Source: Candidatus Yonathbacteria bacterium RIFCSPHIGHO2_02_FULL_44_14 (GTDB taxonomy: Bacteria > Patescibacteriota > Minisyncoccia > Phycocordibacterales > UBA1550). Taken from it: a stretch of 64,000 nucleotides of DNA. The position numbers and the translations under genes are program-made. How positions within the stretch are numbered: position 1 is the stretch's first letter; each line of letters begins with the position of its first letter. This document shows positions 18,041-33,832 of this stretch, one piece after another. The notes under the pieces are model-generated. The model searched no databases. It worked only from the letters and a program-made list of their open reading frames with translations, and was not told where the DNA came from. The DNA lies in contig MHUT01000011.1 in the NCBI GenBank assembly GCA_001823535.1, positions 9,864-73,863 on the forward strand, given 5' to 3'.

Positions 18041-20425
18041 ATGAAACTACGCACAAAAGCCACATTGTTTTTTGGAGCATTCCTTATCACTATCGCCCTC
18101 GGCATCACACTTTACGCTGAATATGTTGTTGGAAACGTTTTCAAAAAACAGGCGACAAGCAACCTCCGCATCGTTGCCGAACAAAGCGAAAGTGCTTATC
18201 TTGCTTTTTTGGGGAGCATGAAGGTGCGAGTTCTCGATTGGACATCGGACGATATGGTTCGAAAAATAACAAAAGGGGTGCTTGCCACTTCAGAGGGATC
18301 TCCTGACCGAACGCGGCTCGCAAAAGAATTCACCACATATTTGAACGAAAAAAAGATGCCTTTTGACAAGACTATCTTCCTCGCCGACCTTCTTGACAAA
18401 AACGGTATCATTATCGCCTCGACACATCCAGAACGTATCGGGAAGGACGAACGAAACGAGGAGGCTGAACATCGCAAGGTGCATGATTTTGACCGAACGA
18501 TTAATTCAAAGTTTGGAGAGGTGTTTTTCGGCACTATCATATTAAACGGGAAAGATGGCAACACAGATCCAACGCTCAATGTGACCGCGCGACTCTTTGA
18601 CATAGACCAGAGCGGAGAGATAAAACCTCTCGACGCAATTCTCCTTGTTTATTTTTCTAATGTGGTAGAAATTGCCGACATTCTCGGCTCTGGTGCAAGC
18701 ATTTATGCCGGATTACCTTCAACAACGGGGAGATTAACAAACGCCGCGCTCATAGAAAGTTACCGTACATCAGAACTTTATCTCGTCAACAATGAGCAAT
18801 TCATGGTTACCCCATCGCGTACAATAAAAGATGTAAGTGTGAAGCAAAAAGTTGACACGCTCCCCGTACACGAGTGTTTGGAAAACGGAAAAGAGATAAA
18901 TGGAGAGTACGATAACTATCAAGGGGTTCGCGTATTGGGCGCCTCAATGTGTTTTCAAAGAGAGGGTGTTACACTCTTGGTAGAAATTCAAAAGGAAGAA
19001 ATTTTTGCGCCATTAAGAGCGCTTGTGCAATCTACGGTAGTTGTTACGGTAATAGCTTTTGCTCTTGGTTTTCTGATCATCGATATTTTCATTCGGCGGC
19101 ATATTGCGCGCATCAGTGACGTTGTTTCAATTGCGAAGCAGGTGTCAAAAGGTAAGTTTAATCTTTCTATGAAGGTGCATACAGAGGACGAGCTGGGTTA
19201 CCTTGCCTCAGTGTTCAATGTAATGATACATTCTGTTTATGAAAATCAAAAATATCTTCAGGATTCAAAACACAAAGCTGAGGAAGAAAGAGCAAAAGAT
19301 GATGCTCTCTTAGCAAGTCTAGGTGAAGGAATGATTGCTACGGATAAATCCGGGAACATCATCGCAATAAACCACATCGCAGAGACACTTCTTGGACTTA
19401 AAGCCACTGCTGCTATCGGGAAAAAAGCTTCTGACATATGCGAAGCATTAGATGAAAACGGCAAAGAAATCCATGAGGAACAGCGAACATTCGCTGTGAC
19501 GACCACTGTTGGAGTCGCCACAATTTCTAAAATAATGCATTATCGCCGAAAAAACTATGGATACTTCCCTGTGGCAATCACAGTAACTCCCGTTATGCTT
19601 AAAGGCAAGGCTATAGGCTCCATTGAAATATTCCGCGACATCACCAAGGAAAAAGAAATTGAAAAAACGCGTGGAGACCTCCTATCTCTCGCTTCGCATC
19701 AGCTGCGCACACCGCTTTCTGGCACCAAGTGGCTCATTGAAACACTGAAAAGAGGATTGCATGGACCACTCACCGCAGGTCAAACAGAATACCTCGATGA
19801 GATCTACAAAATCAACGAACGAATGACAGGACTCGTGCATGACATGCTTGACGTACTTCGCATGGAAAGTGACGGCGGGCAAGCAAAAAAGGAAAATGTT
19901 TCAATAAAAGATCTGCTTGCCACGGTTTTTGAAACACTCCACGGTGTGGCTGAAAGTAAAAAAATTATCATCCGACTACCTGACGATGGGGACTATGTGG
20001 TGAACACCGACCGTATACTTTTACAAAATATCCTTGAAAGTCTGCTGACGAACGCAATCAATTATTCTAAACCTGGTCGCGAGGTCGCGATCAGTATCGA
20101 ACAAAGATTGCGGGCGAATCGCGTAGCGCAAGACTCAGACTCCAGGAGTGAATCCCCTGATGAAATTATATTCGCAGTAAAGGATTCCGGCATAGGGATT
20201 CCGCGCGACGAGCAACGACAAATTTTTGAACGATTTTATCGCGCTTCAAATGCAAAGACCTTCGATACTCGTGGGAGTGGTCTTGGACTCTATATTGCAG
20301 CGATGCTCGCAAAAAAAATAGGGGCGCATCTTTCGTTTGAATCCAAAGAAGGCGTGGGCTCGACCTTTTATGTTCATCTTCCACTTGGGCCAGACGCCTT
20401 GCCTCAAAACACGACTAGTGTATAA
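18041..20425 (+). CDS. sensor histidine kinase (TM, extracytoplasmic sensor, HAMP/PAS, HisKA, HATPase_c)
   Basis: H-box LASHQLRTPLSGTKWL; ATPase G-boxes DSGIGIP...GSGLGLYIAAMLAKKIG; start trimmed to MKLRTK; paralog of 52774-55200. Confidence 0.85.
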   Translation: MKLRTKATLFFGAFLITIALGITLYAEYVVGNVFKKQATSNLRIVAEQSESAYLAFLGSMKVRVLDWTSDDMVRKITKGVLATSEGSPDRTRLAKEFTTYLNEKKMPFDKTIFLADLLDKNGIIIASTHPERIGKDERNEEAEHRKVHDFDRTINSKFGEVFFGTIILNGKDGNTDPTLNVTARLFDIDQSGEIKPLDAILLVYFSNVVEIADILGSGASIYAGLPSTTGRLTNAALIESYRTSELYLVNNEQFMVTPSRTIKDVSVKQKVDTLPVHECLENGKEINGEYDNYQGVRVLGASMCFQREGVTLLVEIQKEEIFAPLRALVQSTVVVTVIAFALGFLIIDIFIRRHIARISDVVSIAKQVSKGKFNLSMKVHTEDELGYLASVFNVMIHSVYENQKYLQDSKHKAEEERAKDDALLASLGEGMIATDKSGNIIAINHIAETLLGLKATAAIGKKASDICEALDENGKEIHEEQRTFAVTTTVGVATISKIMHYRRKNYGYFPVAITVTPVMLKGKAIGSIEIFRDITKEKEIEKTRGDLLSLASHQLRTPLSGTKWLIETLKRGLHGPLTAGQTEYLDEIYKINERMTGLVHDMLDVLRMESDGGQAKKENVSIKDLLATVFETLHGVAESKKIIIRLPDDGDYVVNTDRILLQNILESLLTNAINYSKPGREVAISIEQRLRANRVAQDSDSRSESPDEIIFAVKDSGIGIPRDEQRQIFERFYRASNAKTFDTRGSGLGLYIAAMLAKKIGAHLSFESKEGVGSTFYVHLPLGPDALPQNTTSV

Positions 20426-20449: not shown

Positions 20450-20842
20450 ATGAACCATGTATTAATTGTTGAAGACGAAGATTTCTTGGTACGAGCATTG
20501 AAAGACAACTTGGTTTCCGATGGCTACAGCGTTTCTGTTGCCATGGATGGCGAGGCGGCTTTCGATGAATTGAAGAAGAAAACACCGAGCCTTATTTTGC
20601 TTGATCTTTTGCTCCCAAAAAAGAACGGGTTTGATGTATTGAAAGAAATTCGCCAGAGTCCGGAGTGGCAACTTATCCCTGTGGTCATTCTCTCCAACCT
20701 CGGCGAAGACTCTGAAATCAAGCGTGCGCTCGAGCTCGGCGCAAACGATTATTTCGTGAAATCGCAACATCCAATCCAAGAGGTGATGGAAAAGGTGCGC
20801 GAGTATCTGCAAGGGAAAGGTTCAACAAAGGGAGGAATGTAG
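20450..20842 (+). CDS. single-domain response regulator receiver (CheY-like)
   Basis: LIVEDEDF...LLDLLLPKKNGF...; no output domain. Confidence 0.85.
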   Translation: MNHVLIVEDEDFLVRALKDNLVSDGYSVSVAMDGEAAFDELKKKTPSLILLDLLLPKKNGFDVLKEIRQSPEWQLIPVVILSNLGEDSEIKRALELGANDYFVKSQHPIQEVMEKVREYLQGKGSTKGGM

Positions 20843-20863: not shown

Positions 20864-20905
20864 AAGAAAGGGGGCATCGCCAAAGCCGATGCCCCCTTTC
20901 TTTAT
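20864..20905 (+). terminator. rho-independent terminator
   Basis: aaagaaagggggcatcg-ccaaag-ccgatgccccctttcttt + ttattt. Confidence 0.7.
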
Positions 20906-20928
20906 TTCTAAATTTCTAACTACCTTCC

Positions 20929-20953
20929 CACTTGGAGGCAAAGCCTCCAAGTG
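20929..20953. repeat. REP-like palindromic element copy 1 (cacttggaggc-aaa-gcctccaagtg)
   Basis: Perfect 11-bp inverted repeat immediately 3' of transposase stop. Confidence 0.8.
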
Positions 20954-20955
20954 AA

Positions 20956-21630
20956 TTATATTTCCTCTGGGTCCTCGCGTCTCTTCAAAATATCATCGAG
21001 AGACAACAAGGCGAACTTTTTATATTCAGCGCTATTTCGAAATTGCCCTAGGATAATTCCCTTCTCACAAATACCATCTGCCATTTTACCTTTCTCCGTA
21101 TACTCTCCCCAGCTTGATCTACTCTCCACCAACTTGGAGGTTGAGCCTCCAAGTTGGTGGACGCGGTCATTTAAATTTACATATGCACTCACGTGGAGTA
21201 GGTATTCATTTGAATCTATGTGGACAGCCTTAAACCTTCCCTGAAAAAGGGAGCCATTTCTTTTTTCTTTTTCATTAAAATACATCGTGTAACCAGTAGA
21301 CAAACGATGCATAAATTTTTCTACCCCACGATCAGCAGTCTGCATAAGAAGAAAGTGGTAATGATTAGCGTTCAAACAATACGCAACAAAATCCACCAGC
21401 AGCACTTCCTCTTCCTCCAACTTGGAGGTTGAGCTTCCAAGTTGCTTGTTAAAAGAATTTTGATAGATACTCCCTATCGGGTCAAGCACGTTGAATTCGA
21501 CCATACTCTGGAAAAACCTGTCAATGTCCGCTTGGTCTGAAAAAATATTTCTCTTATCAACTCCTCTGTTATAAATATGATAATACTCGCCTTCAATAAA
21601 TGCTGTTTTCCTTTGTGACATGCCATTCAT
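20956..21630 (-). CDS. Y1 HUH tyrosine transposase (IS200/IS605 TnpA or REP-associated RAYT-like, COG1943)
   Basis: YHIYNRGVDKRNIF; HuH-like NHYHFLL; catalytic-Tyr region GSLFQGRFKAVHIDSNEYLLHVSAYVNLN; start trimmed to MNGMSQ (first 9 codons of ORF come from the hairpin). Confidence 0.7.
   Translation of the reverse strand: MNGMSQRKTAFIEGEYYHIYNRGVDKRNIFSDQADIDRFFQSMVEFNVLDPIGSIYQNSFNKQLGSSTSKLEEEEVLLVDFVAYCLNANHYHFLLMQTADRGVEKFMHRLSTGYTMYFNEKEKRNGSLFQGRFKAVHIDSNEYLLHVSAYVNLNDRVHQLGGSTSKLVESRSSWGEYTEKGKMADGICEKGIILGQFRNSAEYKKFALLSLDDILKRREDPEEI
21126..21160. repeat. REP-like palindromic element copy 2, inside transposase ORF in frame (encodes HQLGGSTSKLV)
   Basis: ccaccaacttggagg-ttgag-cctccaagttggtgg, 15-bp stem. 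Confidence 0.8.
21418..21446. repeat. REP-like palindromic element copy 3, inside transposase ORF in frame (encodes KQLGSSTSKLEE)
   Basis: caacttggagg-ttgag-cttccaagttg, 1 mismatch in stem. Confidence 0.75.
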
Positions 21631-21635
21631 TGTAG

Positions 21636-21661
21636 CACTTGGAGGTTGAACCTCCAAGTGC
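21636..21661. repeat. REP-like palindromic element copy 4 at 5' end of transposase
   Basis: gcacttggagg-ttgaa-cctccaagtgc perfect palindrome. Confidence 0.8.
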
Positions 21662-21720
21662 TGGGTGTGCTTTTTTGTCTTGTAAACTGCTTGACTTACG
21701 GGGTATAATATTTAGGAAAT

Positions 21721-24552
21721 ATGCGCTCATTCCTCCGCAAACTAACTACAAAAACATTTACTATTATTTCTGCTATTTATTTTGTAGTGGTAGGGTTTTT
21801 ATTTTTTCAAAACGAAGTTAGCGCTGCTGTTTCTATCCGTAGCGCAGGAGCATATGTGAGTGGCATATCCAACCTAACACCAATTATCCCTGCCTCTGCT
21901 GCCACTGGTGATATTATGCTTCTGATATACGGCACAAAACCATACAATGACGCCCCAACTGTAACAGCAGGTTGGACAAGCATCGGCTTCGCAACAGATG
22001 GAACGATAGCTGCAGGAAATGATGTTGGCTCAATGCAAACGAGAATTTATTATAAAGAGCACATAGGATCAGAAACAAATCCGACTGTTACCAATACTAC
22101 TAATAGTGTTTCTGGGGCCGTAATCATCGCATTTCAAAAAGGCGCGAGTGAAGTGTGGGAAACTCCTGTTGGTGCAGGAGGTGGAGACGCAACTGCTGGA
22201 ACCGGATTTTCCGTTACAACTTCTGTTAACCCCGGGATCACAGCTGGGGATATGCTAGTTGGGTACGCGGCAATTCGCTCTGATGCTGGTACTCAATCAG
22301 CAATTGCTATTACCGCTACGGGTTTAACTGTCGGGGCATTTACAGAGTCCCCCTCTGCTGATTTAGCTACCAACTCAGGAGGTGACATGGCAATGTCTGG
22401 TGGCTACAGACTTGTAACAGCTGGTACAGCGTCAGACGCACCTGTTTATGCATCAACGCTCGCCACATCACATACCGGATCTGCATTTATAGTAAGATTG
22501 CGAGCAACAACGCCCCCCGCCGTCCCCACGGTCACCTCGCCCACCGCAACATCCATCGCCACAACAGGCGCAACGCTTGGCGCAAACGTTACGTCTCTCG
22601 GTGTGCCTGCATCCATCTCTGCGCGCGGAACTTGCTGGGGAGAATCATCAGCGCCAACAATAAACTGTACTCCTGCATCAGGTTTAACTACTGGTGTGTT
22701 CACACATGCTCGCACAGGAATGTCCCCTGGAACTTTTTACTACTACCGTGGCTATGCAACCAATTCTACTGGCACGGGATATTCAACTGATGGTACATTC
22801 ACAACGACCGCTTCCGCCTCTGGCTCCGTCTCTGCTTCCCCATCTTCGTGTACCATTTCATCGGGAGCAAGTACCTGTACTGTGCAGTTCACATGGGCCA
22901 TCAGCAATGCGACATCGCCAAATCTTTACAACTTCACTAGGTCAACAGAATATTCAGCGTTGGCCTCTGGCACTGGTGTCTCATACGCAATCACTAATGG
23001 AGTGAACACTGTGCAGGTGCGCGACAGTAGTACTGTGCTTGATTCAACAAGCGTAACAGCAAGTTGCGAGGCCGGCACTTCGTGGAGTGGTGGTGTTTGT
23101 ACGGCGATTGTAACTTACTACACTATCTTTGCATCATCAGGAGTAAATGGAACAGTTGAACCAACAGGCACATCTACCATTGCGCAGGGTGGCTCACAAA
23201 TTTACTCCATTACCCCTAACTCATTATATGAAGTCGCGACATTGTTAATAGACGGTGGTCCTGTTACAGCAACGACAACTTATACATTCACAAACGTAAC
23301 CGCAAACCACACAATCAGCGCAACATTCAGCCTTCTGCCAGTTACGCACACCATTACCTCAAGCGCTGGCTCAAATGGCACAATTGACCCACTCGGGGCG
23401 ATTGTGGTTCTAAATGGCGCTTCGCAAGCATTTAGCATCACCCCAGAGCCTGGCTTTTACACAGCATCGCTCCTTGTAGACGGTGGCAATGTCGCAACAA
23501 CAAGTCCTTATACATTCACAAACGTCACAACAAACCACACCATCACTGCGACATTTGCACAAATTCCAACACCTCCTGGCTCGTTCACTATCATCGCAAG
23601 CCAAAACCCAAATGGTACTGTAGCGCCAAGTGGCTCAACTACTGTGACAGAGAGCGCATCACAAACATACACCATCACCCCAAACTCTGGATATGATGTT
23701 GGGTCATTGATTATTGATAGTTTTACTGTTGCCACATCCACTTCATATACTTTTACAAATGTTACTGCCGACCACACTATAGAAGCGACTTTCACGGCGC
23801 TTCCCGAAACGCCAGTGATGGCAACAGTAAGGAGGCTCGCAAGTATCACATTTTCTGGAAAAGCCTTCCCGAGTGGGAAAATTTCAATTGTCCGAAAAGA
23901 GCTCGGTAATGAAATTGCAACAAAGGAACATGGCACGACAGACGAAAACGGATTCTTTAATATTAGATTCACAGACCTTCAAACTGGAGCGCACAGCTTT
24001 GGTCTCCTAATAAAAGACCCCGAGGGCAGAACTTCACAAACAAAATTCTTTCTCGTTGACGTAAGTAGAGGTGATGAAATATTTAAGGACATAATAGCTC
24101 CGCCAACTGTTGATATTTTAAACGGGCAAGTTTCGCGCGGAGGAAATCTAAAAGTTTTTGGTTATGCTTCTCCTGGCCATACCATTCGCATCTATTTAGA
24201 TGATATACTAGTCAAAGAGGCGCTTGCAGGGCGCGGAGGTGTGTACTCGTTTGATATACCCACAGGAGTATTTGATTTTGGACAACACAAAGTCAGAGCA
24301 AAACAAATAAACCTTGACGGTGGCGTCGCGAGTGATTTCTCAACAGGAAGAACATTCATTGTGTCCAAACTTGCTATAGTAAAGGCAGACCTCTCTGGCG
24401 ACGGAAAGATTGACATCAAAGACTGGAGCATCTTTCTCGCGCGCTGGGGCGCAAAGAATTCTCTGGGCAGGGCTGGCATCGACTTGAACGAGGACGGGAA
24501 AGTAGATATTGGAGATTTTAGTATATTTATCAAAACAATTAGAAAAAAATAA
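21721..24552 (+). CDS. giant secreted surface protein: N-terminal signal/TM, Thr/Ser-rich region, four ~90-aa Ig-like tandem repeats, CarbopepD_reg-like domain, C-terminal dockerin (two Ca-binding repeats)
   Basis: Repeats ...NGTVEPTG..QGGSQ.YSITPN.GY.V..L.IDG......YTFTNVT.NHTI.ATF x4; dockerin DLSGDGKIDIKDWSIF...DLNEDGKVDIGDFSIF. Confidence 0.7.
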   Translation: MRSFLRKLTTKTFTIISAIYFVVVGFLFFQNEVSAAVSIRSAGAYVSGISNLTPIIPASAATGDIMLLIYGTKPYNDAPTVTAGWTSIGFATDGTIAAGNDVGSMQTRIYYKEHIGSETNPTVTNTTNSVSGAVIIAFQKGASEVWETPVGAGGGDATAGTGFSVTTSVNPGITAGDMLVGYAAIRSDAGTQSAIAITATGLTVGAFTESPSADLATNSGGDMAMSGGYRLVTAGTASDAPVYASTLATSHTGSAFIVRLRATTPPAVPTVTSPTATSIATTGATLGANVTSLGVPASISARGTCWGESSAPTINCTPASGLTTGVFTHARTGMSPGTFYYYRGYATNSTGTGYSTDGTFTTTASASGSVSASPSSCTISSGASTCTVQFTWAISNATSPNLYNFTRSTEYSALASGTGVSYAITNGVNTVQVRDSSTVLDSTSVTASCEAGTSWSGGVCTAIVTYYTIFASSGVNGTVEPTGTSTIAQGGSQIYSITPNSLYEVATLLIDGGPVTATTTYTFTNVTANHTISATFSLLPVTHTITSSAGSNGTIDPLGAIVVLNGASQAFSITPEPGFYTASLLVDGGNVATTSPYTFTNVTTNHTITATFAQIPTPPGSFTIIASQNPNGTVAPSGSTTVTESASQTYTITPNSGYDVGSLIIDSFTVATSTSYTFTNVTADHTIEATFTALPETPVMATVRRLASITFSGKAFPSGKISIVRKELGNEIATKEHGTTDENGFFNIRFTDLQTGAHSFGLLIKDPEGRTSQTKFFLVDVSRGDEIFKDIIAPPTVDILNGQVSRGGNLKVFGYASPGHTIRIYLDDILVKEALAGRGGVYSFDIPTGVFDFGQHKVRAKQINLDGGVASDFSTGRTFIVSKLAIVKADLSGDGKIDIKDWSIFLARWGAKNSLGRAGIDLNEDGKVDIGDFSIFIKTIRKK

Positions 24553-24553
24553 T

Positions 24554-26227
24554 ATGGCGCGGAGCATTAAAATTAGTTTCATTTTCGGGCTTGTAGCGTT
24601 TTTTGCAAACACAGCAGATGCCGCTTCCCTTTTCTTTACGCCCGGAACCGGCGAGTATGGCATTGGAAAAGAAATCGCCGTCGATCTTAAAATAGATAGC
24701 AGTGACACGGGTATCAATGCGGGGCAAGCGACTATACGCTACCCCAAGGATATTTTGGAAGTGAAGTCTATCGACAAAACAGACTCAGCTTTCAACTTCT
24801 GGCTTGAGGAACCGGCTTTTTCCAACGCAGACGGCGCAATCACGTTTTTAGGGGGTACCCCGTATGGTATTTCCGGCGCGTCTATTCAGGTTCTTCATAT
24901 TATTTTTATTACTAAGACCGCCGGCACGGGAACGCTTTCTTTTGCAGATGCGGCAGTGACAGCATCGGACGCTAGTGGTACAAACGTTTTGTCCAAAACA
25001 GAGGAAGCGGCATTTACCGTTTCTCTTGCCACACTTCCGCCTATCATTACTCCGCCGACACAGATCAAGAGAGAGCCCGTAGCGCCAAGCGGACTTCCAA
25101 TAAAGCCCATACTCAATGTTCCGCTCTACACGGACAGTGCAGAGTGGTACAACCACTCAAACATCTTTAACGCATCATGGGCTCTCCCGCGCGATATTTC
25201 CGATGTTGTCACAGCGCTCAACAAGCAACCGAGCTACACACCCGCAGAAAGCGAAGGGCTCTTTGACAACAAGATGTTTCAAGCACTCTCCGACGGAGTA
25301 TGGTATCTCCACGTGCGGTTCAACAACGACATCGGATGGGGCACAACGAGCCATTATCGTATTGCCGTCGACACAAAACCACCGCTTCCGTTTGAGGTTA
25401 CCTCAACAGAAAGCGAAGTGAGCGACAACCCAAATCCAATATTTAAATTTAAAGCGAGTGATGCGCTCTCGGGTCTTCGTGAATATCGCGTGCGAGCCGG
25501 TACCGAGAATTGGATTGTAATTCCTGCAAAAGATTTCAAGGGCTTATTCGCGCTCCCCATCGAAAACCCCGGCAAATACCATGTCACCGTCCAAGCAGTG
25601 GACAATGCGGGGAACAGCATCGAGAGCGGTATCGACCATGAGACACTCGCGATTGCATCGCCCACATTCACCTTCGTGACCGAAAAACTCTTTTCAGAAG
25701 AAGCGCAGGGGCTCTCCTTGAAAGGCACGGCACTCCCTTCTACAGAAATACTTCTCGCGCTCAAAAGCGGGAGCACTGTCATTGCGTCGAGCACTCTTCC
25801 GGTAAACGCGCAAGGAAACTGGGAATTCACTTTTAGCGACCCGCTTCGCAACGGAAGCTATATAGCAAGCATCCAAAACAGAGACGCTCGCGGAGCGCGC
25901 AGTCTCGTGGTTAATTCTCCGACAATACAGGTCACTGGCAAATACACAAATATCATCCTTGTCACGCTCATTGCGCTCGTTGGCGCGCTCGCTTTGGGAA
26001 CATGGTATTACAAAAAACGCAACAAACAAATATCCCTCCGTGTCGGTGTCGCACAAAGTGATGCGTCGAAGGTATTCAAGATGATAGAAAATGATATAGA
26101 AAAATTAAACAGTGCGCGAAGCACCCCCACAACAGCCGACGACGAATTTCTCGCAAAGAAACTCTCGGAGAACGTAAAAAAGATGGGTGTCTATATTAAA
26201 GAAGAAATCGACCGCGCGGACGACTAA
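24554..26227 (+). CDS. cohesin-domain protein with C-terminal TM anchor (scaffoldin-like)
   Basis: Signal peptide MARSIKISFIFGLVAFFANTADA; cohesin-like beta-sandwich segment GKEIAVDLKIDSSDTGINAGQATIRYPKDILEVKSID...TGTLSFADAAV; TM IILVTLIALVGALALGTWYY near C-terminus; starts 2 nt after dockerin gene stop. Confidence 0.5.
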   Translation: MARSIKISFIFGLVAFFANTADAASLFFTPGTGEYGIGKEIAVDLKIDSSDTGINAGQATIRYPKDILEVKSIDKTDSAFNFWLEEPAFSNADGAITFLGGTPYGISGASIQVLHIIFITKTAGTGTLSFADAAVTASDASGTNVLSKTEEAAFTVSLATLPPIITPPTQIKREPVAPSGLPIKPILNVPLYTDSAEWYNHSNIFNASWALPRDISDVVTALNKQPSYTPAESEGLFDNKMFQALSDGVWYLHVRFNNDIGWGTTSHYRIAVDTKPPLPFEVTSTESEVSDNPNPIFKFKASDALSGLREYRVRAGTENWIVIPAKDFKGLFALPIENPGKYHVTVQAVDNAGNSIESGIDHETLAIASPTFTFVTEKLFSEEAQGLSLKGTALPSTEILLALKSGSTVIASSTLPVNAQGNWEFTFSDPLRNGSYIASIQNRDARGARSLVVNSPTIQVTGKYTNIILVTLIALVGALALGTWYYKKRNKQISLRVGVAQSDASKVFKMIENDIEKLNSARSTPTTADDEFLAKKLSENVKKMGVYIKEEIDRADD

Positions 26228-26269: not shown

Positions 26270-26302
26270 GCGCCGATTGCCTTCGGCAATCGGCGTTCCT
26301 GT
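26270..26302. terminator. hairpin between convergent cohesin and SET genes
   Basis: gcgccgattgcc-ttcg-gcaatcggcg stem-loop. Confidence 0.35.
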
Positions 26303-26322: not shown

Positions 26323-26736
26323 TTAAATGTTTTTCCCTTTGCAGGACACACATCTACAGCCGTATGGCTTTATATATTCATCTGTATATTCCTCGCCATA
26401 ATCATAGTTGAGCTCCTCCCCTGCTTCAATGCGCTTGACCGCCTTCACAAACACACGACCTCCGATGATGTCAACTTCACAATTTGGTTTGCAAGAATGG
26501 TTTATATACCGCGCAGTGTTGGAGCGAGCGCTTCCATCGATCATCCTCGTTGCACTTGTTTCAAATAGATATTTATTCTCTGGGTAATCCTCGACTTCTT
26601 TTTTGCCGCTTATAATCTTTCCCACATATTCAATAATCCAGGTACCTCGTTTGATTGGTTCTGCGGCAAAAAGCCCGAGTCCCGCACTCGACTTCTTTAC
26701 TTTATATTTTACATCTCCGATTTTTGGAATTGGCAT
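26323..26736 (-). CDS. SET-domain protein (putative protein lysine methyltransferase), 137 aa
   Basis: RYINHSCKPNCEV (NHSC.PNC), ELNYDYG, C-terminal CRCVSCKG post-SET Cys cluster; only the C-terminal part of the 395-aa ORF (from MPIPKIG) is genuine. Confidence 0.75.
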   Translation of the reverse strand: MPIPKIGDVKYKVKKSSAGLGLFAAEPIKRGTWIIEYVGKIISGKKEVEDYPENKYLFETSATRMIDGSARSNTARYINHSCKPNCEVDIIGGRVFVKAVKRIEAGEELNYDYGEEYTDEYIKPYGCRCVSCKGKNI

Positions 26737-29432: not shown

Positions 29433-31313
29433 ATGAATAACGGACACATTGATTTTGAAAAAGCGCTCAGGTTTGAAATTTCCCTTGTTGTTCTTTTTAT
29501 TGCAACATTTGCACTCTACGTAGGAGGATTATTACCAGAAAAGTTTGAAGGACAAATCATTGGAATTGTTGGGTTTGTAGGAATATTTCCTGTAGCACAG
29601 AGTGCGTTTCGTTCTTTGCGTGAACAAAAAATAAATGTTGACCTTCTCGCGACAATCGCGCTTTTTTTCTCATTCATAAGCGCCGAGTGGGGCTCGATGC
29701 TTTTCATAAACCTCATGCTCGCTGGGGCACGAGTTCTTGACTTGTATACAAAAAGACGTGTTCGAATCTCGCTCGAGAGTCTCACAAAGTTAAAGCCCTC
29801 GAAGGCACGTATTCTTCGAGGAGCAGAGTCCTTAGAGGTTCCTCTTGCAGATGTACGAATCGGCGACCTCGTGGTTGTAAATCTCGGCGAGCAAATACCT
29901 GTTGATGGGTCAGTCTTCGAGGGTTCTGCGACAGTAAGCCAAGCATCCTTGACTGGTGAATCTGTGCCTGTGCTTCGGGAGCCAGGTTCGTCTGTGCTTT
30001 CTGCAACCGTTGTTGTTTCCGGAAATATTATCATTCGCACGGAACGCATCGGTGCTGAAACCACCTTCGAGCGAATGATAAACCTCATTGAGGCCTCTCA
30101 TGACGCAAAAACAAGAATGAGAACGTTCGCTGAGCGTTTTTCAAGCTGGTACATCGGCATTATGCTTGTAGTTGCAGTAATTCTTTATTTAATAACAAAA
30201 AATACGCAACTCGTGCTGGCAGTTGTGCTTGTAGTGTGTGCGGATGACATTGCTATTGCTGTTCCCCTCGCATATATAATCGCGATAGGCACAGCAGCAC
30301 GCCGTGGAATTATTGTAAAAAGCACCGATTTTCTGGAACTTGTGACAAAAATCACTACCCTTGTTGTAGACAAAACGGGAACACTAACGCTCGGCAAACT
30401 AGCAGTTGAAGATGTTCGGGCGTTTGGTGACACAACCACGGAGCAATTACTTGAGCTCTCTGGGATTATTTGTGCGCGTTCAAACCACCCAGTCTCAAAA
30501 GCAATAATGGAATATGCTAAGGAAAAGGGTTGCTCCTGCACACCGCTAGATCATTTTAAAGAAATCGAAGGTCGTGGCATCGTCGGGACTGATTTCAATG
30601 GCAAGGAAATAATAATTGGCAGACTTGAGTTTTTAAATGAACGAGAAATTAAACTTGAGCACGAAGCAAAAGTAGCAACAGATGGCTGGGTATCCAAGGG
30701 CTACAACATAACACTTATTGCTTTGAGTGGTAATGTGATTGGAATGTTCGCTCTCGCTGACAAGATGCGCGAAGGAGTAATTGACGCAATGAGTGTCCTC
30801 AAAAAAACCGGCGTTAAAGAAATTATAATGCTCACAGGTGACAATGAAGGAGTGGCAAAAAAAATTGCAGACCACCTTGGTATCGACAAATACTATTCAA
30901 AACTTCTTCCAGAACACAAAGTTTTCATTCTTAAAGATTATCTTGGAAAACAAGGAGGGGTGGTGGCAATGATAGGAGATGGGGTAAACGACGCCGCTGT
31001 GATAACCCGTGCCGATATTGGCATAGCAATGGGTGGCATCGGATCCGATGTCGCAATAGAATCAGCCGACATTGTTCTTATGCAAGATAATTTTGGAAAA
31101 ATCCTCGAACTGCGCAGTATCGCCAGAAAAGTTTCTGCTGTAGTACGTGAAAACTTTATTATATGGGGTGTGGTAAACGGAGTAGGACTTTATTTGGTAT
31201 TCGCCCATATCATAGGTCCGTCAGGCGCCGCCGCATACAATTTCCTCACCGACTTCCTCCCTATCGCAAACTCTCTTCGTCTTTTCCGTTATCGCCAAAA
31301 CAATATATACTAA
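29433..31313 (+). CDS. P1B-like heavy-metal P-type ATPase lacking N-terminal metal-binding domain, atypical TM6 motif C-A-D-D in place of CPC
   Basis: TGES (LTGESVPV), DKTGTLT, MLTGDN, GDGVNDAAV; P1B-like 2+6 TM topology; VVCADDIAIAVPLAYI where CPC/SPC/CPH is expected. Confidence 0.7.
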   Translation: MNNGHIDFEKALRFEISLVVLFIATFALYVGGLLPEKFEGQIIGIVGFVGIFPVAQSAFRSLREQKINVDLLATIALFFSFISAEWGSMLFINLMLAGARVLDLYTKRRVRISLESLTKLKPSKARILRGAESLEVPLADVRIGDLVVVNLGEQIPVDGSVFEGSATVSQASLTGESVPVLREPGSSVLSATVVVSGNIIIRTERIGAETTFERMINLIEASHDAKTRMRTFAERFSSWYIGIMLVVAVILYLITKNTQLVLAVVLVVCADDIAIAVPLAYIIAIGTAARRGIIVKSTDFLELVTKITTLVVDKTGTLTLGKLAVEDVRAFGDTTTEQLLELSGIICARSNHPVSKAIMEYAKEKGCSCTPLDHFKEIEGRGIVGTDFNGKEIIIGRLEFLNEREIKLEHEAKVATDGWVSKGYNITLIALSGNVIGMFALADKMREGVIDAMSVLKKTGVKEIIMLTGDNEGVAKKIADHLGIDKYYSKLLPEHKVFILKDYLGKQGGVVAMIGDGVNDAAVITRADIGIAMGGIGSDVAIESADIVLMQDNFGKILELRSIARKVSAVVRENFIIWGVVNGVGLYLVFAHIIGPSGAAAYNFLTDFLPIANSLRLFRYRQNNIY

Positions 31314-31318
31314 ATGAT

Positions 31319-33832
31319 ATGAATTTTTCCCCGTATGCTCAAAGTAATACCGAAAAAATAACAAAACTTTTTTCTGTCAATCCAGCACAGGGACTTTTGT
31401 CTGCGGAAATTGAAGGTCGGCGGAAAGAATCAGGAATGAACATACTTGAGGAAAGTAAAATTAGCCCGCTAAAAATTTTCCTTCGTCAATTTAAGTCATC
31501 CTTTATTTATTTGCTTCTTTTTGCGACAGTACTCTCATTTTCTCTTGGACAAACCACTGAAGGTGTGATGATTCTTATATTTCTCTTTATTAATGCATCC
31601 CTTGGATTTTACCAAGAGTATCGTTCTGAACAAACAGTTCTGCTTCTCAAGCGCTATGTTACCACTCGCGTCAAAGTAAGACGAGACGGGAGAGTTTCGA
31701 CTATAAACGCGAGAGAGCTCGTTTTGGGGGATATCGTAATTCTTGAGGCTGGCGACGGAGTACCGGCCGACATTCGCATTATTGAAGAAACAAACCTTGT
31801 GGTAAATGAGGAACCATTGACTGGTGAGTCCGTCTCAGTAGACAAAGAGAGCGCACCTCAAGCACACTCTGAAACGGAGCTCTATGAAGCTAAAAATATT
31901 TGCTTCTCTGGTACTACCGTTGTTTCTGGGCGCGCAGTGGGTATCGTATTCGCAACAGGCAATCGTACTATGATTGGTGGTATTGCAGAGCTCGCAGGTG
32001 GAGCGACACGCGTGAGTAGCTTTGAACAAGAACTCGGTAAATTCAGTCGCTTCATTTTATACCTTGTTATCGGCACACTCACATTTATCTTTGCGGTGAA
32101 TATTCTCCTTAAAGGTTTCTCTGCAAATATCGTCGAGCTCGCTATTTTTTCTATTGCGCTTGCGGTATCAGTCGTTCCCGAGGCGCTTCCGCTTGTTATG
32201 ACATTCTCACTCTCGCGAGGAGCACGACGTCTTGCAAAAGAGCATGTTGTTGTGAAGCGCCTATCCTCCATTGAGGACCTCGGCAGCATACAGATGCTCT
32301 GCACAGACAAAACGGGCACACTCACAGAAAACAAATTAACAGTCCACCAAACGTGCGGAAATGATGATAGGAGAACCATCATTGCGGGAGTTCTTGGAGG
32401 AAGCTATCTCGGCACAAAAGAGCGTGGTGGCACCCCCGACCCGTTTGATACAGCACTTTGGGAGGCACTTTCGCCTGAAGAACAATCTGTAGTCGATTCT
32501 CATATTCATCTGAATGATACGCCGTTTGACCCCATCCATAAAAAAAGCAGTGCTACTGTTAAGCACGGAGATGAAACAACGCTAATTGTTCGCGGAGCGC
32601 CCGAATCAATAATTAGCAGCTCAAAATTATCCGGCGAAGAGAGTTCAACTATTCTCAAGTGGGTTGCAGAAGAAGGTTTTGCGGGACGCCGCACTCTTGC
32701 AATCGCATCAAAAAAAATTATTAATACTGCTGACAATGACGATACAAATCTTACTTTTATTGGCTGTGTTTCCTTTATAGATCCAATCAAGGAAAGTGCG
32801 AAACAAGCGATTAAAGACGCACAGGCACTCGGGGTGAAAATCAAAATTTTGACCGGAGATAGTCGCGAGGTTGCAGGCGTGGTTGCACACGAAGTCGGAC
32901 TCGCTAAAACTCCAGATGATGTCCTCACTGCCCGTGAATTTTTTGCTCTTCCGGATGGTGTGCGTGAATCTGCACTCGAACAAACAAACGTATTTGCTCG
33001 CGTATCGCCAGAAGAAAAATATCGCCTGATTGAACTTCTTCAAAAAAATTACCAAGTTGGTTTCCTTGGTGAGGGCATAAATGACGCTCCTGCGCTTAAA
33101 ATTGCCAATGTTGCCATTGTTGTTGCGAGCGCATCTGACATCGCGCGCGAAGTCTCAGATATTATTCTTCTTGATAAAAGCCTCGCAGTGGTCATCGGGG
33201 GTATACGCGAAGGACGCGCAATTTTTGCAAATACAATCAAGTACATTAGGAGTTCTCTTTCGTCCAACTTCGGCAATTTTTATGCAGTTGCAATCTCTTC
33301 CCTATTTATCCCATTTCTGCCGATGCTTGCACTACAAATACTCCTTGTAAACCTCCTTTCCGACTTCCCCGCTATTGCTATCGCAACCGACACCGTGGAT
33401 GATGCCGAACTTCGCGAGCCACGACAGTATAATGTTCGAAAATTAGTTGCAATGGGTACCGTTCTCGGTATCGTTTCAACTGTTTTTGATTTTATAATTT
33501 TTGCTTCGTTCTATAAGATAGGCCCCGAAGCGCTCCAGACCCACTGGTTCATTGAAAGTATTTTGACTGAACTCCTCTTCCTCTTCTCAATCCGCTCACG
33601 TTCATTCTTCTGGAAAACGAAAGCGCCTTCTGTTATTTTGGTTCTACTTTCAGCACTCGCGGCATCTGCAACATTAATCATTCCATTCACGAGCATTGGG
33701 CAGTCACTATTCCACTTTATCGCACCCACAGCGGCTTCACTGGGCTTTGTACTCGGTATTGTTGCTCTCTATTTTATCACTACTGAATTCGCTAAAATAG
33801 CCTACTATAAACTTTCCGCTCCTGCGAAATAA
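31319..33832 (+). CDS. P-type ATPase, type II/III (Mg2+/Ca2+-type, MgtA-like)
   Basis: Cation-ATPase N-terminal domain, CTDKTGTLTENK, PEALPLV, TGDSREVA, GEGINDAPAL; start trimmed to MNFSPYAQS. Confidence 0.8.
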   Translation: MNFSPYAQSNTEKITKLFSVNPAQGLLSAEIEGRRKESGMNILEESKISPLKIFLRQFKSSFIYLLLFATVLSFSLGQTTEGVMILIFLFINASLGFYQEYRSEQTVLLLKRYVTTRVKVRRDGRVSTINARELVLGDIVILEAGDGVPADIRIIEETNLVVNEEPLTGESVSVDKESAPQAHSETELYEAKNICFSGTTVVSGRAVGIVFATGNRTMIGGIAELAGGATRVSSFEQELGKFSRFILYLVIGTLTFIFAVNILLKGFSANIVELAIFSIALAVSVVPEALPLVMTFSLSRGARRLAKEHVVVKRLSSIEDLGSIQMLCTDKTGTLTENKLTVHQTCGNDDRRTIIAGVLGGSYLGTKERGGTPDPFDTALWEALSPEEQSVVDSHIHLNDTPFDPIHKKSSATVKHGDETTLIVRGAPESIISSSKLSGEESSTILKWVAEEGFAGRRTLAIASKKIINTADNDDTNLTFIGCVSFIDPIKESAKQAIKDAQALGVKIKILTGDSREVAGVVAHEVGLAKTPDDVLTAREFFALPDGVRESALEQTNVFARVSPEEKYRLIELLQKNYQVGFLGEGINDAPALKIANVAIVVASASDIAREVSDIILLDKSLAVVIGGIREGRAIFANTIKYIRSSLSSNFGNFYAVAISSLFIPFLPMLALQILLVNLLSDFPAIAIATDTVDDAELREPRQYNVRKLVAMGTVLGIVSTVFDFIIFASFYKIGPEALQTHWFIESILTELLFLFSIRSRSFFWKTKAPSVILVLLSALAASATLIIPFTSIGQSLFHFIAPTAASLGFVLGIVALYFITTEFAKIAYYKLSAPAK

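Follow-up and report, generated by a model that had tools for sequence, protein, structure and literature searches.

A dockerin-bearing secreted protein and a transmembrane cohesin protein encoded in tandem in Candidatus Yonathbacteria: a probable non-cellulosomal surface-display module

Introduction

Pairing of cohesin and dockerin modules outside cellulosomes is not new. The cohesin of Archaeoglobus fulgidus (2xdh) and the toxin and glycosidase complexes of Clostridium perfringens (2vo8, 2jh2, 2w1n and 2ozn) carry their modules on separate proteins, without a cellulosome. Cell-bound cohesins that capture dockerin-bearing secreted proteins are represented by OlpA, OlpC and SdbA of Clostridium (Acetivibrio) thermocellum, in which type I or type II cohesins are combined with SLH repeats. 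A tethered cargo of adhesin type, with an immunoglobulin (Ig)-like module directly before its dockerin, is found in the CttA XDoc–ScaE complex of Ruminococcus flavefaciens (4iu3). Here we analyse a 64-kb stretch of DNA, referred to throughout as the window, from Candidatus Yonathbacteria, an ultra-small groundwater bacterium belonging to the Candidate Phyla Radiation (CPR)/Patescibacteria (Parcubacteria/Paceibacteria), in which a gene for a dockerin-bearing secreted protein (gene 1) is immediately followed by a gene for a cohesin-bearing membrane protein (gene 2).

CPR bacteria represent a large share of bacterial diversity and most of them are thought to be attached to other cells; to our knowledge, hardly anything has been established on surface construction or partner recognition in Paceibacteria. 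In another CPR class, the saccharibacterium Southlakia epibionticum has an essential dockerin-domain envelope protein, SEML1_0315, for which host adhesion or glycan targeting has been proposed (Wang et al. 2023, PMC10633639). Compared by its description, this protein resembles gene 1 in being a dockerin-bearing envelope protein of a CPR bacterium; the paper describing it mentions no cohesin partner (PMC10633639). The literature searched on cohesins and dockerins in CPR, Patescibacteria or Parcubacteria and on non-cellulosomal systems yielded no description of the pair reported here, which does not prove that none exists.

Organization of the gene pair and its probable role

Gene 1 (21,721..24,552, plus strand) is an open reading frame (ORF) that encodes a secreted modular cargo protein of 943 residues, and gene 2 (24,554..26,227, plus strand) is an ORF that encodes a cohesin-bearing type I membrane anchor of 557 residues. 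The TAA stop codon of gene 1 occupies positions 24,550–24,552 and is separated by a single base from the ATG of gene 2 at 24,554; this 1-nt gap, together with the overlap seen in some relatives, suggests that both proteins are co-translated in matched amounts. An earlier reading of the window made from its letters alone (the sequence-only reading) had given the coordinates and gene order exactly, but its description of the gene 1 product as 'giant' is overstated, a protein of 943 residues being large rather than giant. A hypothetical protein of Candidatus Yonathbacteria bacterium RIFCSPHIGHO2_01_FULL matches the gene 2 product with 100% identity, which places the window in a CPR/Patescibacteria genome.

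The pair probably constitutes a two-gene surface-display module in which the cargo is docked on a transmembrane anchor by a non-cellulosomal, non-covalent cohesin–dockerin tether. Gene 2 would be exported by its signal peptide and retained in the membrane by one C-terminal helix, its three Ig-like domains and Pro-rich linker presenting a single type-I-like cohesin beyond the wall, away from the membrane, and its conserved tail of ~70 residues staying in the cytoplasm. By analogy with established cohesin–dockerin pairs, the secreted gene 1 product would dock through its C-terminal dockerin into the gene 2 cohesin, non-covalently and in a calcium-dependent manner, so that the cargo would be held on the cell that made it. 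The stalk and dockerin of gene 1, ~245 residues in all, would thereby display an interchangeable head of adhesin-type β-modules. The established pairs also suggest an adhesive role for the cargo, which would most likely make contact with surfaces or other cells in a lineage presumed to be host-attached.

The modules lie on separate proteins of a non-cellulolytic organism, as in other non-cellulosomal cohesin–dockerin systems. In contrast to the A. fulgidus and C. perfringens systems, however, a single-pass membrane protein that has a cytoplasmic tail is here devoted to carrying the cohesin, and in most related loci the gene of its partner is found immediately upstream, across a tight junction. 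The cargo is no enzyme but an adhesin-like protein whose heads are swapped, and conservation of the pair extends across a CPR class. Known anchors are fixed to the wall by SLH repeats or sortase, and ScaE of R. flavefaciens is sortase-anchored, whereas gene 2 has a transmembrane helix and a cytoplasmic domain; unlike the C. thermocellum scaffoldins, the system contains no enzymes, no carbohydrate-binding module (CBM) and no multi-cohesin scaffoldin. The single-pass transmembrane anchor with its conserved cytoplasmic tail, in place of SLH repeats or sortase, thus differs from the described systems, as do the tight junction to the upstream cargo gene, the swapped non-enzymatic heads, the class-wide conservation in CPR bacteria and the frequent linkage to two-component genes. 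Cohesin–dockerin biology would be extended in this way to a transmembrane-anchored, non-enzymatic, operon-encoded form. The gene pair is very widespread (about 2,000 clusters at 50% identity), its proposed mechanism is clear and directly testable, and its small defined domains are material for binding assays. Conserved anchors combined with swappable heads could also help in labelling uncultivated cells or pulling them down, and would supply a set of candidate host-recognition proteins.

Cohesin and dockerin modules

The N-terminal domain of gene 2 (residues 24–157; 24,623..25,024, plus strand) is an all-β sandwich assigned as a cohesin from an AlphaFold2 (AF2) model, from Foldseek comparisons and from Pfam matches of its orthologues. 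The cohesin fold was taken to be a nine-stranded all-β jelly-roll sandwich of ~140 residues that superposes on solved cohesins, and this is the fold found for the domain. The AF2 model calculated for residues 22–170 is all-β and confident (predicted local distance difference test (pLDDT) 90.6, predicted template-modelling score (pTM) 0.80). When this model was compared with the Protein Data Bank (PDB) using Foldseek, the 45 best matches were all cohesins, mostly of type I (E 2e-9 to 7e-5), with template-modelling (TM) scores of 0.6–0.78 and root-mean-square deviation (r.m.s.d.) values of 2.4–4 Å (TM 0.75/0.78 and r.m.s.d. 2.4 Å for 6kge_A). The top match is 2xdh, the non-cellulosomal A. fulgidus cohesin (E 2e-9), followed by type I cohesins of C. 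acetobutylicum, of C. thermocellum OlpC and OlpA (4dh2 and 3ul4, TM up to 0.76) and of C. cellulolyticum, with TM scores up to 0.78 and r.m.s.d. values of 2.4–3 Å. The C. perfringens cohesins occupy ranks 24–33 and ScaE (4iu3_A) rank 39; type II and III cohesins rank lower, and the gene 2 fold is nearer to cohesins of type I (TM 0.7–0.78) than to those of type III (TM 0.58).

When gene 2 or its family profile was searched against PDB sequences, the only matches were weak ones to R. flavefaciens cohesins (E 0.2–0.7), and the sequence alone would therefore be insufficient for the cohesin assignment. Against the Pfam Cohesin profile (PF00963), gene 2 scores 14.9 bits (E 0.03, covering profile positions 13–128 of 139), below the cutoff of 24.1. 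The same profile is matched at E≤0.1 by 15 of 51 members of the gene 2 family, with a best value of 4.9e-7, and several orthologues already bear the automatic NCBI name 'cohesin domain-containing protein', which means that no novelty attaches to the module identities. Within gene 2, conservation is highest in the cohesin, at a mean pairwise identity of 62%. A Foldseek search with the full-length gene 2 model was also tried and set aside: generic multi-Ig/FN3 chains dominate its matches, which are not diagnostic, and the N-terminal domain was modelled alone instead.

The C terminus of gene 1 (residues 881–943; 24,361..24,549, plus strand) forms a type-I-like dockerin with two 12-residue calcium-binding loops, each followed by a D[WF]SIF[LI] helix. 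Loop 1, DLSGDGKIDIKD, spans 24,388–24,423 and leads into WSIFLARW; loop 2, DLNEDGKVDIGD, spans 24,481–24,516 and leads into FSIFIKTI, the two loop starts being 31 residues apart. Type I dockerins contain a segment of ~22 residues twice, with loops ~30 residues apart. Each segment consists of an EF-hand-like loop of 12 residues and a helix after it, the loop having D, N or S at positions 1, 3, 5 and 9 and, at position 12, D; this architecture of duplicated loop and helix (PF00404) is present in gene 1. No dockerin-type loops other than these two occur in the six reading frames of the window. The isolated C-terminal 66 residues match Pfam Dockerin_1 with 30.9 bits (E 3e-7; cutoff 22.9); the whole protein scores 21.7 bits, just under that cutoff, and also falls below the cutoff of the NCBIfam dockerin model. 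All 45 orthologous C termini match Dockerin_1 (best E 3e-13), and in these 45 sequences Asp occupies positions 1 and 12 of both loops without exception (D890, D901, D921 and D932 in gene 1). The dockerin is the most conserved part of gene 1 (50% mean pairwise identity). Among solved structures, the dockerin family profile matches the C. thermocellum dockerin 4fl4_A at 5.6e-10, together with 2y3n_B, CelS (2mte/1daq) and 2vn5_B (type I dockerins, E 6e-10 to 1e-5), as well as the C. perfringens dockerin 2jnk/2ozn. Since the D[WF]SIF helices of the two halves are similar, the cohesin might be engaged by either half, in the manner of dual-binding type I dockerins.

Both module assignments of the sequence-only reading have thus held. 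It had described two canonical dockerin calcium-binding repeats at the end of gene 1, which the score of the isolated module and the matches of every orthologue bear out, and a cohesin-like pattern at the N terminus of gene 2, now backed by a confident fold, by 45 best PDB matches that are all cohesins and by orthologues that pass the Pfam Cohesin profile. It had staked its proposal on the second protein having a cohesin profile match or fold, and the fold was found. The Pfam searches that it had suggested gave a divided result, positive with PF00404 for the isolated C terminus but sub-threshold with PF00963 for gene 2 itself, the latter profile being matched in 15 of the 51 orthologues.

Exchangeable heads on a conserved stalk

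Gene 1 begins with a signal peptide (residues 1–35; 21,721..21,825, plus strand) that has a basic n-region (MRSFLRKLTTK), a hydrophobic stretch with a hydropathy peak at residues 10–31 and a VSA/A end. The variable head that follows (residues 36–262, 227 residues; 21,826..22,506, plus strand) has no Pfam match and is replaced in close orthologues. Residues 263–465 (22,507..23,115, plus strand) form two β-rich modules, one fn3-like and one Cys-containing, that are shuffled among orthologues and recur in other order and number in the relatives P0122, P0123 and P0134; residues 366–465 have no match in Pfam. Three tandem Flg_new_2 (InlB B-repeat-like) repeats of ~77 residues occupy residues 466–696 (23,116..23,808, plus strand), with limits at 466–541, 543–618 and 621–696. 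They are recognized by Pfam Flg_new_2 in three stretches (E 7e-8) and by self-alignment of gene 1, which scores 183–213 between 70-residue stretches starting at ~466–481, 541–551 and 616–636. The conserved stalk (23,818..24,360, plus strand) consists of two Ig-like domains, a Big_6-like one (residues 700–785; Pfam Big_6, E 1e-7) and a second one (residues 786–880) that abuts the dockerin and could, by its position, act like an X-module.

This anatomy retains the tandem repeats that the sequence-only reading had placed upstream of the dockerin, but these number three, of the Flg_new_2/InlB B-repeat type, and not four Ig-like ones, and are accompanied by the two non-repeated Ig-like domains of residues 700–880. 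The discrete Thr-rich stalk that it had also described is not seen: Thr makes up 15% of the protein but is spread diffusely over residues 250–700. A 606-residue fragment from another sample, P0121, is 93% identical to gene 1 and is devoid of one of the three Flg_new_2 repeats (23,116–23,808), which could reflect either copy-number variation between strains or an assembly collapse.

Comparison of the cargos shows where the protein is constrained. Only the last ~245 residues can be aligned among 42 cargos, conservation starting at the Ig-like stalk, and mean pairwise identity is 34–36% in the stalk versus 22% in the head. Complete orthologous cargos range from 337 to 1806 residues, and their heads carry YDG, Big_3_5, TIG, fn3, RTX, DUF11/CLIPPER, β-helix and Flg_new_2 modules. 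Close relatives are 66–79% identical to gene 1 over the C-terminal two-thirds, yet their heads are unrelated. The head of gene 1 itself (21,826–22,506) recurs with 59–65% identity at the N terminus of unrelated, dockerin-less proteins of 527–628 residues (P0171 and P0154), and is thus a mobile module, employed in other attachment contexts as well. Unrelated heads on conserved C termini, together with the recurrence of a head elsewhere, bear the mark of modules being swapped on an attachment device that stays fixed.

The same domain content bears on whether the pair could be a minimal cellulosome-like complex for polysaccharide degradation. The presence of cohesin and dockerin modules is all that speaks for such a complex. 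No glycoside hydrolase, carbohydrate esterase, polysaccharide lyase or CBM domain was found by Pfam in gene 1, in gene 2 or in 41 orthologous cargos, the cargo heads contain no enzymatic or catalytic domain, and a single cohesin is present without a scaffoldin. With one cohesin, no carbohydrate-active enzyme or CBM domain and no SLH or sortase anchoring, this explanation is rejected on domain content, any chance left to it being minute, and the non-cellulolytic setting asserted by the sequence-only reading is confirmed for gene 1 and its 41 orthologues.

Another explanation would make the cargo the main protein of a surface lattice or coat, as in an S-layer, and the cohesin protein its membrane pedestal. 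In agreement with this, each locus has one conserved pair, the family is very large (2255 clusters), and the cargo combines a variable exposed part with a conserved anchoring part, as S-layer proteins do; in addition, 7ptp_A and 8cka_A, both S-layer chains, are among the numerous multi-Ig proteins that the full-length anchor model matches. These two matches are nevertheless generic for multi-Ig chains (TM 0.13–0.22), and cargo lengths of 337 to 1806 residues with unrelated domain sets fit adhesins better than a lattice former. We therefore regard an S-layer-type role as unlikely and retain the tethered adhesin-like cargo as the preferred interpretation.

Conservation of the pair across Paceibacteria

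A scan of one genome per GTDB species returned 134 relatives of gene 2, from which 80 loci with 35–68% identity were kept; together with loci obtained by exact protein look-up, they give 83 non-redundant loci. These belong to Yonath-, Nomura-, Azam-, Wolfe-, Staskawicz-, Adler-, Buchanan-, Uhr-, Magasanik-, Jorgensen-, Harrison- and Colwellbacteria. An upstream ORF on the same strand that matches the last 253 residues of gene 1 is present in 78 of the 83. A diverged double loop lies upstream in one further locus (L047), and another (L059) has a shortened ORF with one loop and a phmmer match. Two loci have no upstream DNA and were excluded. Of the 81 loci that could be assessed, 80 thus have a dockerin gene upstream of the cohesin gene and in the same orientation, L029 being the exception. 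The two genes are directly adjacent in most of them, with gaps mostly between -4 and +60 nt, many of 1–4 nt or overlapping. The family as a whole is large: an exhaustive profile search at E≤1e-30 retrieved 2255 representatives of 50%-identity clusters, most of them full-length, with ~560–610 residues. The tandem arrangement of cohesin and dockerin on which the sequence-only reading had built its proposal consequently has strong comparative support.

Adjacency might nevertheless reflect co-regulation only, the dockerin serving as a calcium-binding stabilizer or as the ligand of some other cohesin, and the cohesin binding other dockerins. Cross-partner binding is common in cellulosomes, and one locus (L029) has a cohesin gene without an adjacent dockerin gene, both of which would fit such an arrangement. 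Conversely, order and strand are kept in 80 of 81 loci down to 35% identity, with junctions that are usually tight or overlapping, each of the two modules is better conserved than any other part of its protein, and the window holds exactly one dockerin and one cohesin. That the two modules are not mutual partners is accordingly very improbable in our estimation.

Transmembrane anchor and cytoplasmic tail of gene 2

The full-length AF2 model of gene 2 (pLDDT 84.6) shows an extended succession of domains on a single membrane helix. The signal peptide (residues 1–23; 24,554..24,622, plus strand) can be read directly from the sequence (MARSIK, a hydrophobic stretch and ADA/A), had been recognized in the sequence-only reading, and is helical with low pLDDT in the model. 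Downstream of the cohesin, a Pro-rich linker without secondary structure in the model (residues 158–185; 25,025..25,108, plus strand) leads into three Ig-like spacer domains (residues 186–292, 293–368 and 369–462, the last being a Big_13 domain; 25,109..25,939, plus strand). The spacers are β-rich with pLDDT values of ~90, match Pfam Big_13 (1e-12) and an NCBIfam OmpL47-type model (5e-5), and have multi-Ig/FN3 adhesins among their Foldseek matches. A single transmembrane helix (residues ~463–488; 25,940..26,017, plus strand) is followed by KKRNK, consistent with the positive-inside rule; hydropathy exceeds 1.8 at 463–468 and a long model helix starts at residue 465, so that the C-terminal membrane anchor recognized earlier is supported by hydropathy and model alike. 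No SLH, LPXTG, CBM or second cohesin was detected in gene 2 in a Pfam and NCBIfam scan, and anchoring is through the transmembrane helix.

The polypeptide ends in a conserved cytoplasmic tail of two helices (residues 489–557, ~70 residues; 26,018..26,224, plus strand; model helices 465–520 and 528–556) that has no Pfam match. The pattern R..A.RD....F..I..D..K ... N..K...Y....I..I is kept in the 70 aligned loci, in all clades, and the mean pairwise identity of the tail (52%) is about equal to that of the extracellular spacer domains.

The middle domains of the anchor also occur in another setting. An exhaustive search found the region of profile positions ~190–370 (WYN...YLHVRF and the next Ig-like domain) as 14–32 tandem copies in giant proteins (P0241, of 4269 residues, and P0246, P0253, P0361, P0371 and P0376).

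Two-component genes upstream of the pair

The conserved neighbourhood starts with a sensor histidine kinase gene (18,041..20,425, plus strand; 794 residues), called from the identical contig L001. Its product has two transmembrane segments around an outside domain of ~300 residues, followed by HAMP, PAS, HisKA and HATPase domains (Pfam HATPase_c 5.6e-24, HisKA 7.7e-13, PAS_9 5.9e-12, HAMP 5e-6). A receiver-only response regulator of 130 residues without output domain follows (20,450..20,842, plus strand; Pfam Response_reg 2.7e-24). Of the 46 loci with enough upstream DNA, 29 have a receiver-only gene as the direct upstream neighbour of the dockerin gene, and a kinase gene precedes the receiver in 26 of those 29; these loci are essentially the clades with at least 40% identity. 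The other 17 of the 46 loci, from more distant clades, have no adjacent kinase or regulator. Receiver-only genes are also found directly before the cohesin gene, as one small gene between dockerin and cohesin genes in L007 (7578–7973), L023 (1348–1749) and L027 (1287–1715), and in L029 (5438–5911), where the order is histidine kinase, receiver, cohesin.

The regulator and gene 1 are set apart by several elements in this genome. A GC-rich hairpin with a T-run (20,866..20,906, plus strand; GGGGGCATCG-CCAAAGC-CGATGCCCCC TTTCTTT) follows the regulator gene and, judged by its sequence, looks like a terminator that would separate the kinase/regulator operon from gene 1. An IS200/Y1-transposase-like insertion comes next (20,929..21,660, minus strand; gene 20,956–21,657, Pfam Y1_Tnp 5e-7). 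Its gene is flanked at 20,929–20,953 and 21,636–21,660 by the hairpin CACTTGGAGG-N5-CCTCCAAGTG, which has two copies in 64 kb versus 0 expected; neither L005 nor L006, both syntenic, has the insertion. It resembles a REP/RAYT- or IS200-type element that has entered between the regulator and gene 1 and lies outside the system. Gene 1 has a promoter-like site of its own, TTGTAA-18-TATAAT, 12 nt 5' of its ATG (21,680..21,709, plus strand; 10/12 matches, by consensus match only).

The kinase, the regulator and the cytoplasmic tail could together indicate an outside-in contact sensor, in which a ligand, for instance a host surface, is recognized by the head and a signal passes via the transmembrane helix and tail to the regulator and kinase. 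Such a sensor is compatible with the tether and would add a function to it, the cohesin–dockerin link becoming part of a signalling device. It is favoured by the tail pattern, conserved in all 70 aligned loci with 52% mean identity, by the kinase and receiver-only regulator directly upstream in 26–29 of 46 loci, and by the extra receiver gene between the pair in L007, L023 and L027 and the kinase–receiver–cohesin order of L029; receiver-only regulators act through protein contacts. However, the terminator-like hairpin and the transposase-like insertion part the regulator from gene 1, which has its own promoter-like site, the tail remains conserved in the 17 of 46 distant-clade loci without an adjacent kinase or regulator, it matches no known signalling domain in Pfam, and the kinase might do no more than regulate transcription via a partner that is not linked. 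We hold such a sensor possible, with a rather low probability. A broader proposal, equally tentative, is that of a contact apparatus common to the class Paceibacteria, with a cohesin-tipped receptor, a rapidly evolving, exchangeable dockerin-tagged ligand-binder and a tail reporting to the regulator and kinase; if true, the pair would be a modular device for host recognition and signalling and not only a tether.

Several observations weigh against the surface tether that we favour. The window's gene 2 protein by itself stays under the Pfam Cohesin threshold. The dockerin family profile matches EF-hand calcium-binding proteins too, as expected for this type of loop, and docking is therefore not proven by sequence alone. 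The cohesin gene of L029 has no dockerin gene within 6 kb upstream, and the dockerin and cohesin inventory of this genome covers the 64-kb window only. A passive tether, finally, leaves the conserved cytoplasmic tail and the linked kinase and regulator unexplained, which is why a signalling or envelope-lattice role retains some room.

Flanking genes

Downstream of gene 2, a palindromic GC-rich hairpin (26,271..26,295; 11 pairs, 8 of them GC) separates the pair from a convergent gene and is likely a bidirectional terminator. That gene (26,323–26,736, minus strand), located just 3' of the cohesin gene, encodes a protein of 137 residues with a SET domain (Pfam SET 4e-25) that is putatively a lysine methyltransferase. 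Few bacteria have SET proteins, and the gene keeps the same position in the Yonathbacteria-like loci L001, L005 and L006. Further 3' of the pair, at 29,433–33,832, two P-type ATPase genes are followed by an RND-adaptor/ABC/FtsX (MacAB-like) export set, an order that is conserved in the same three loci.

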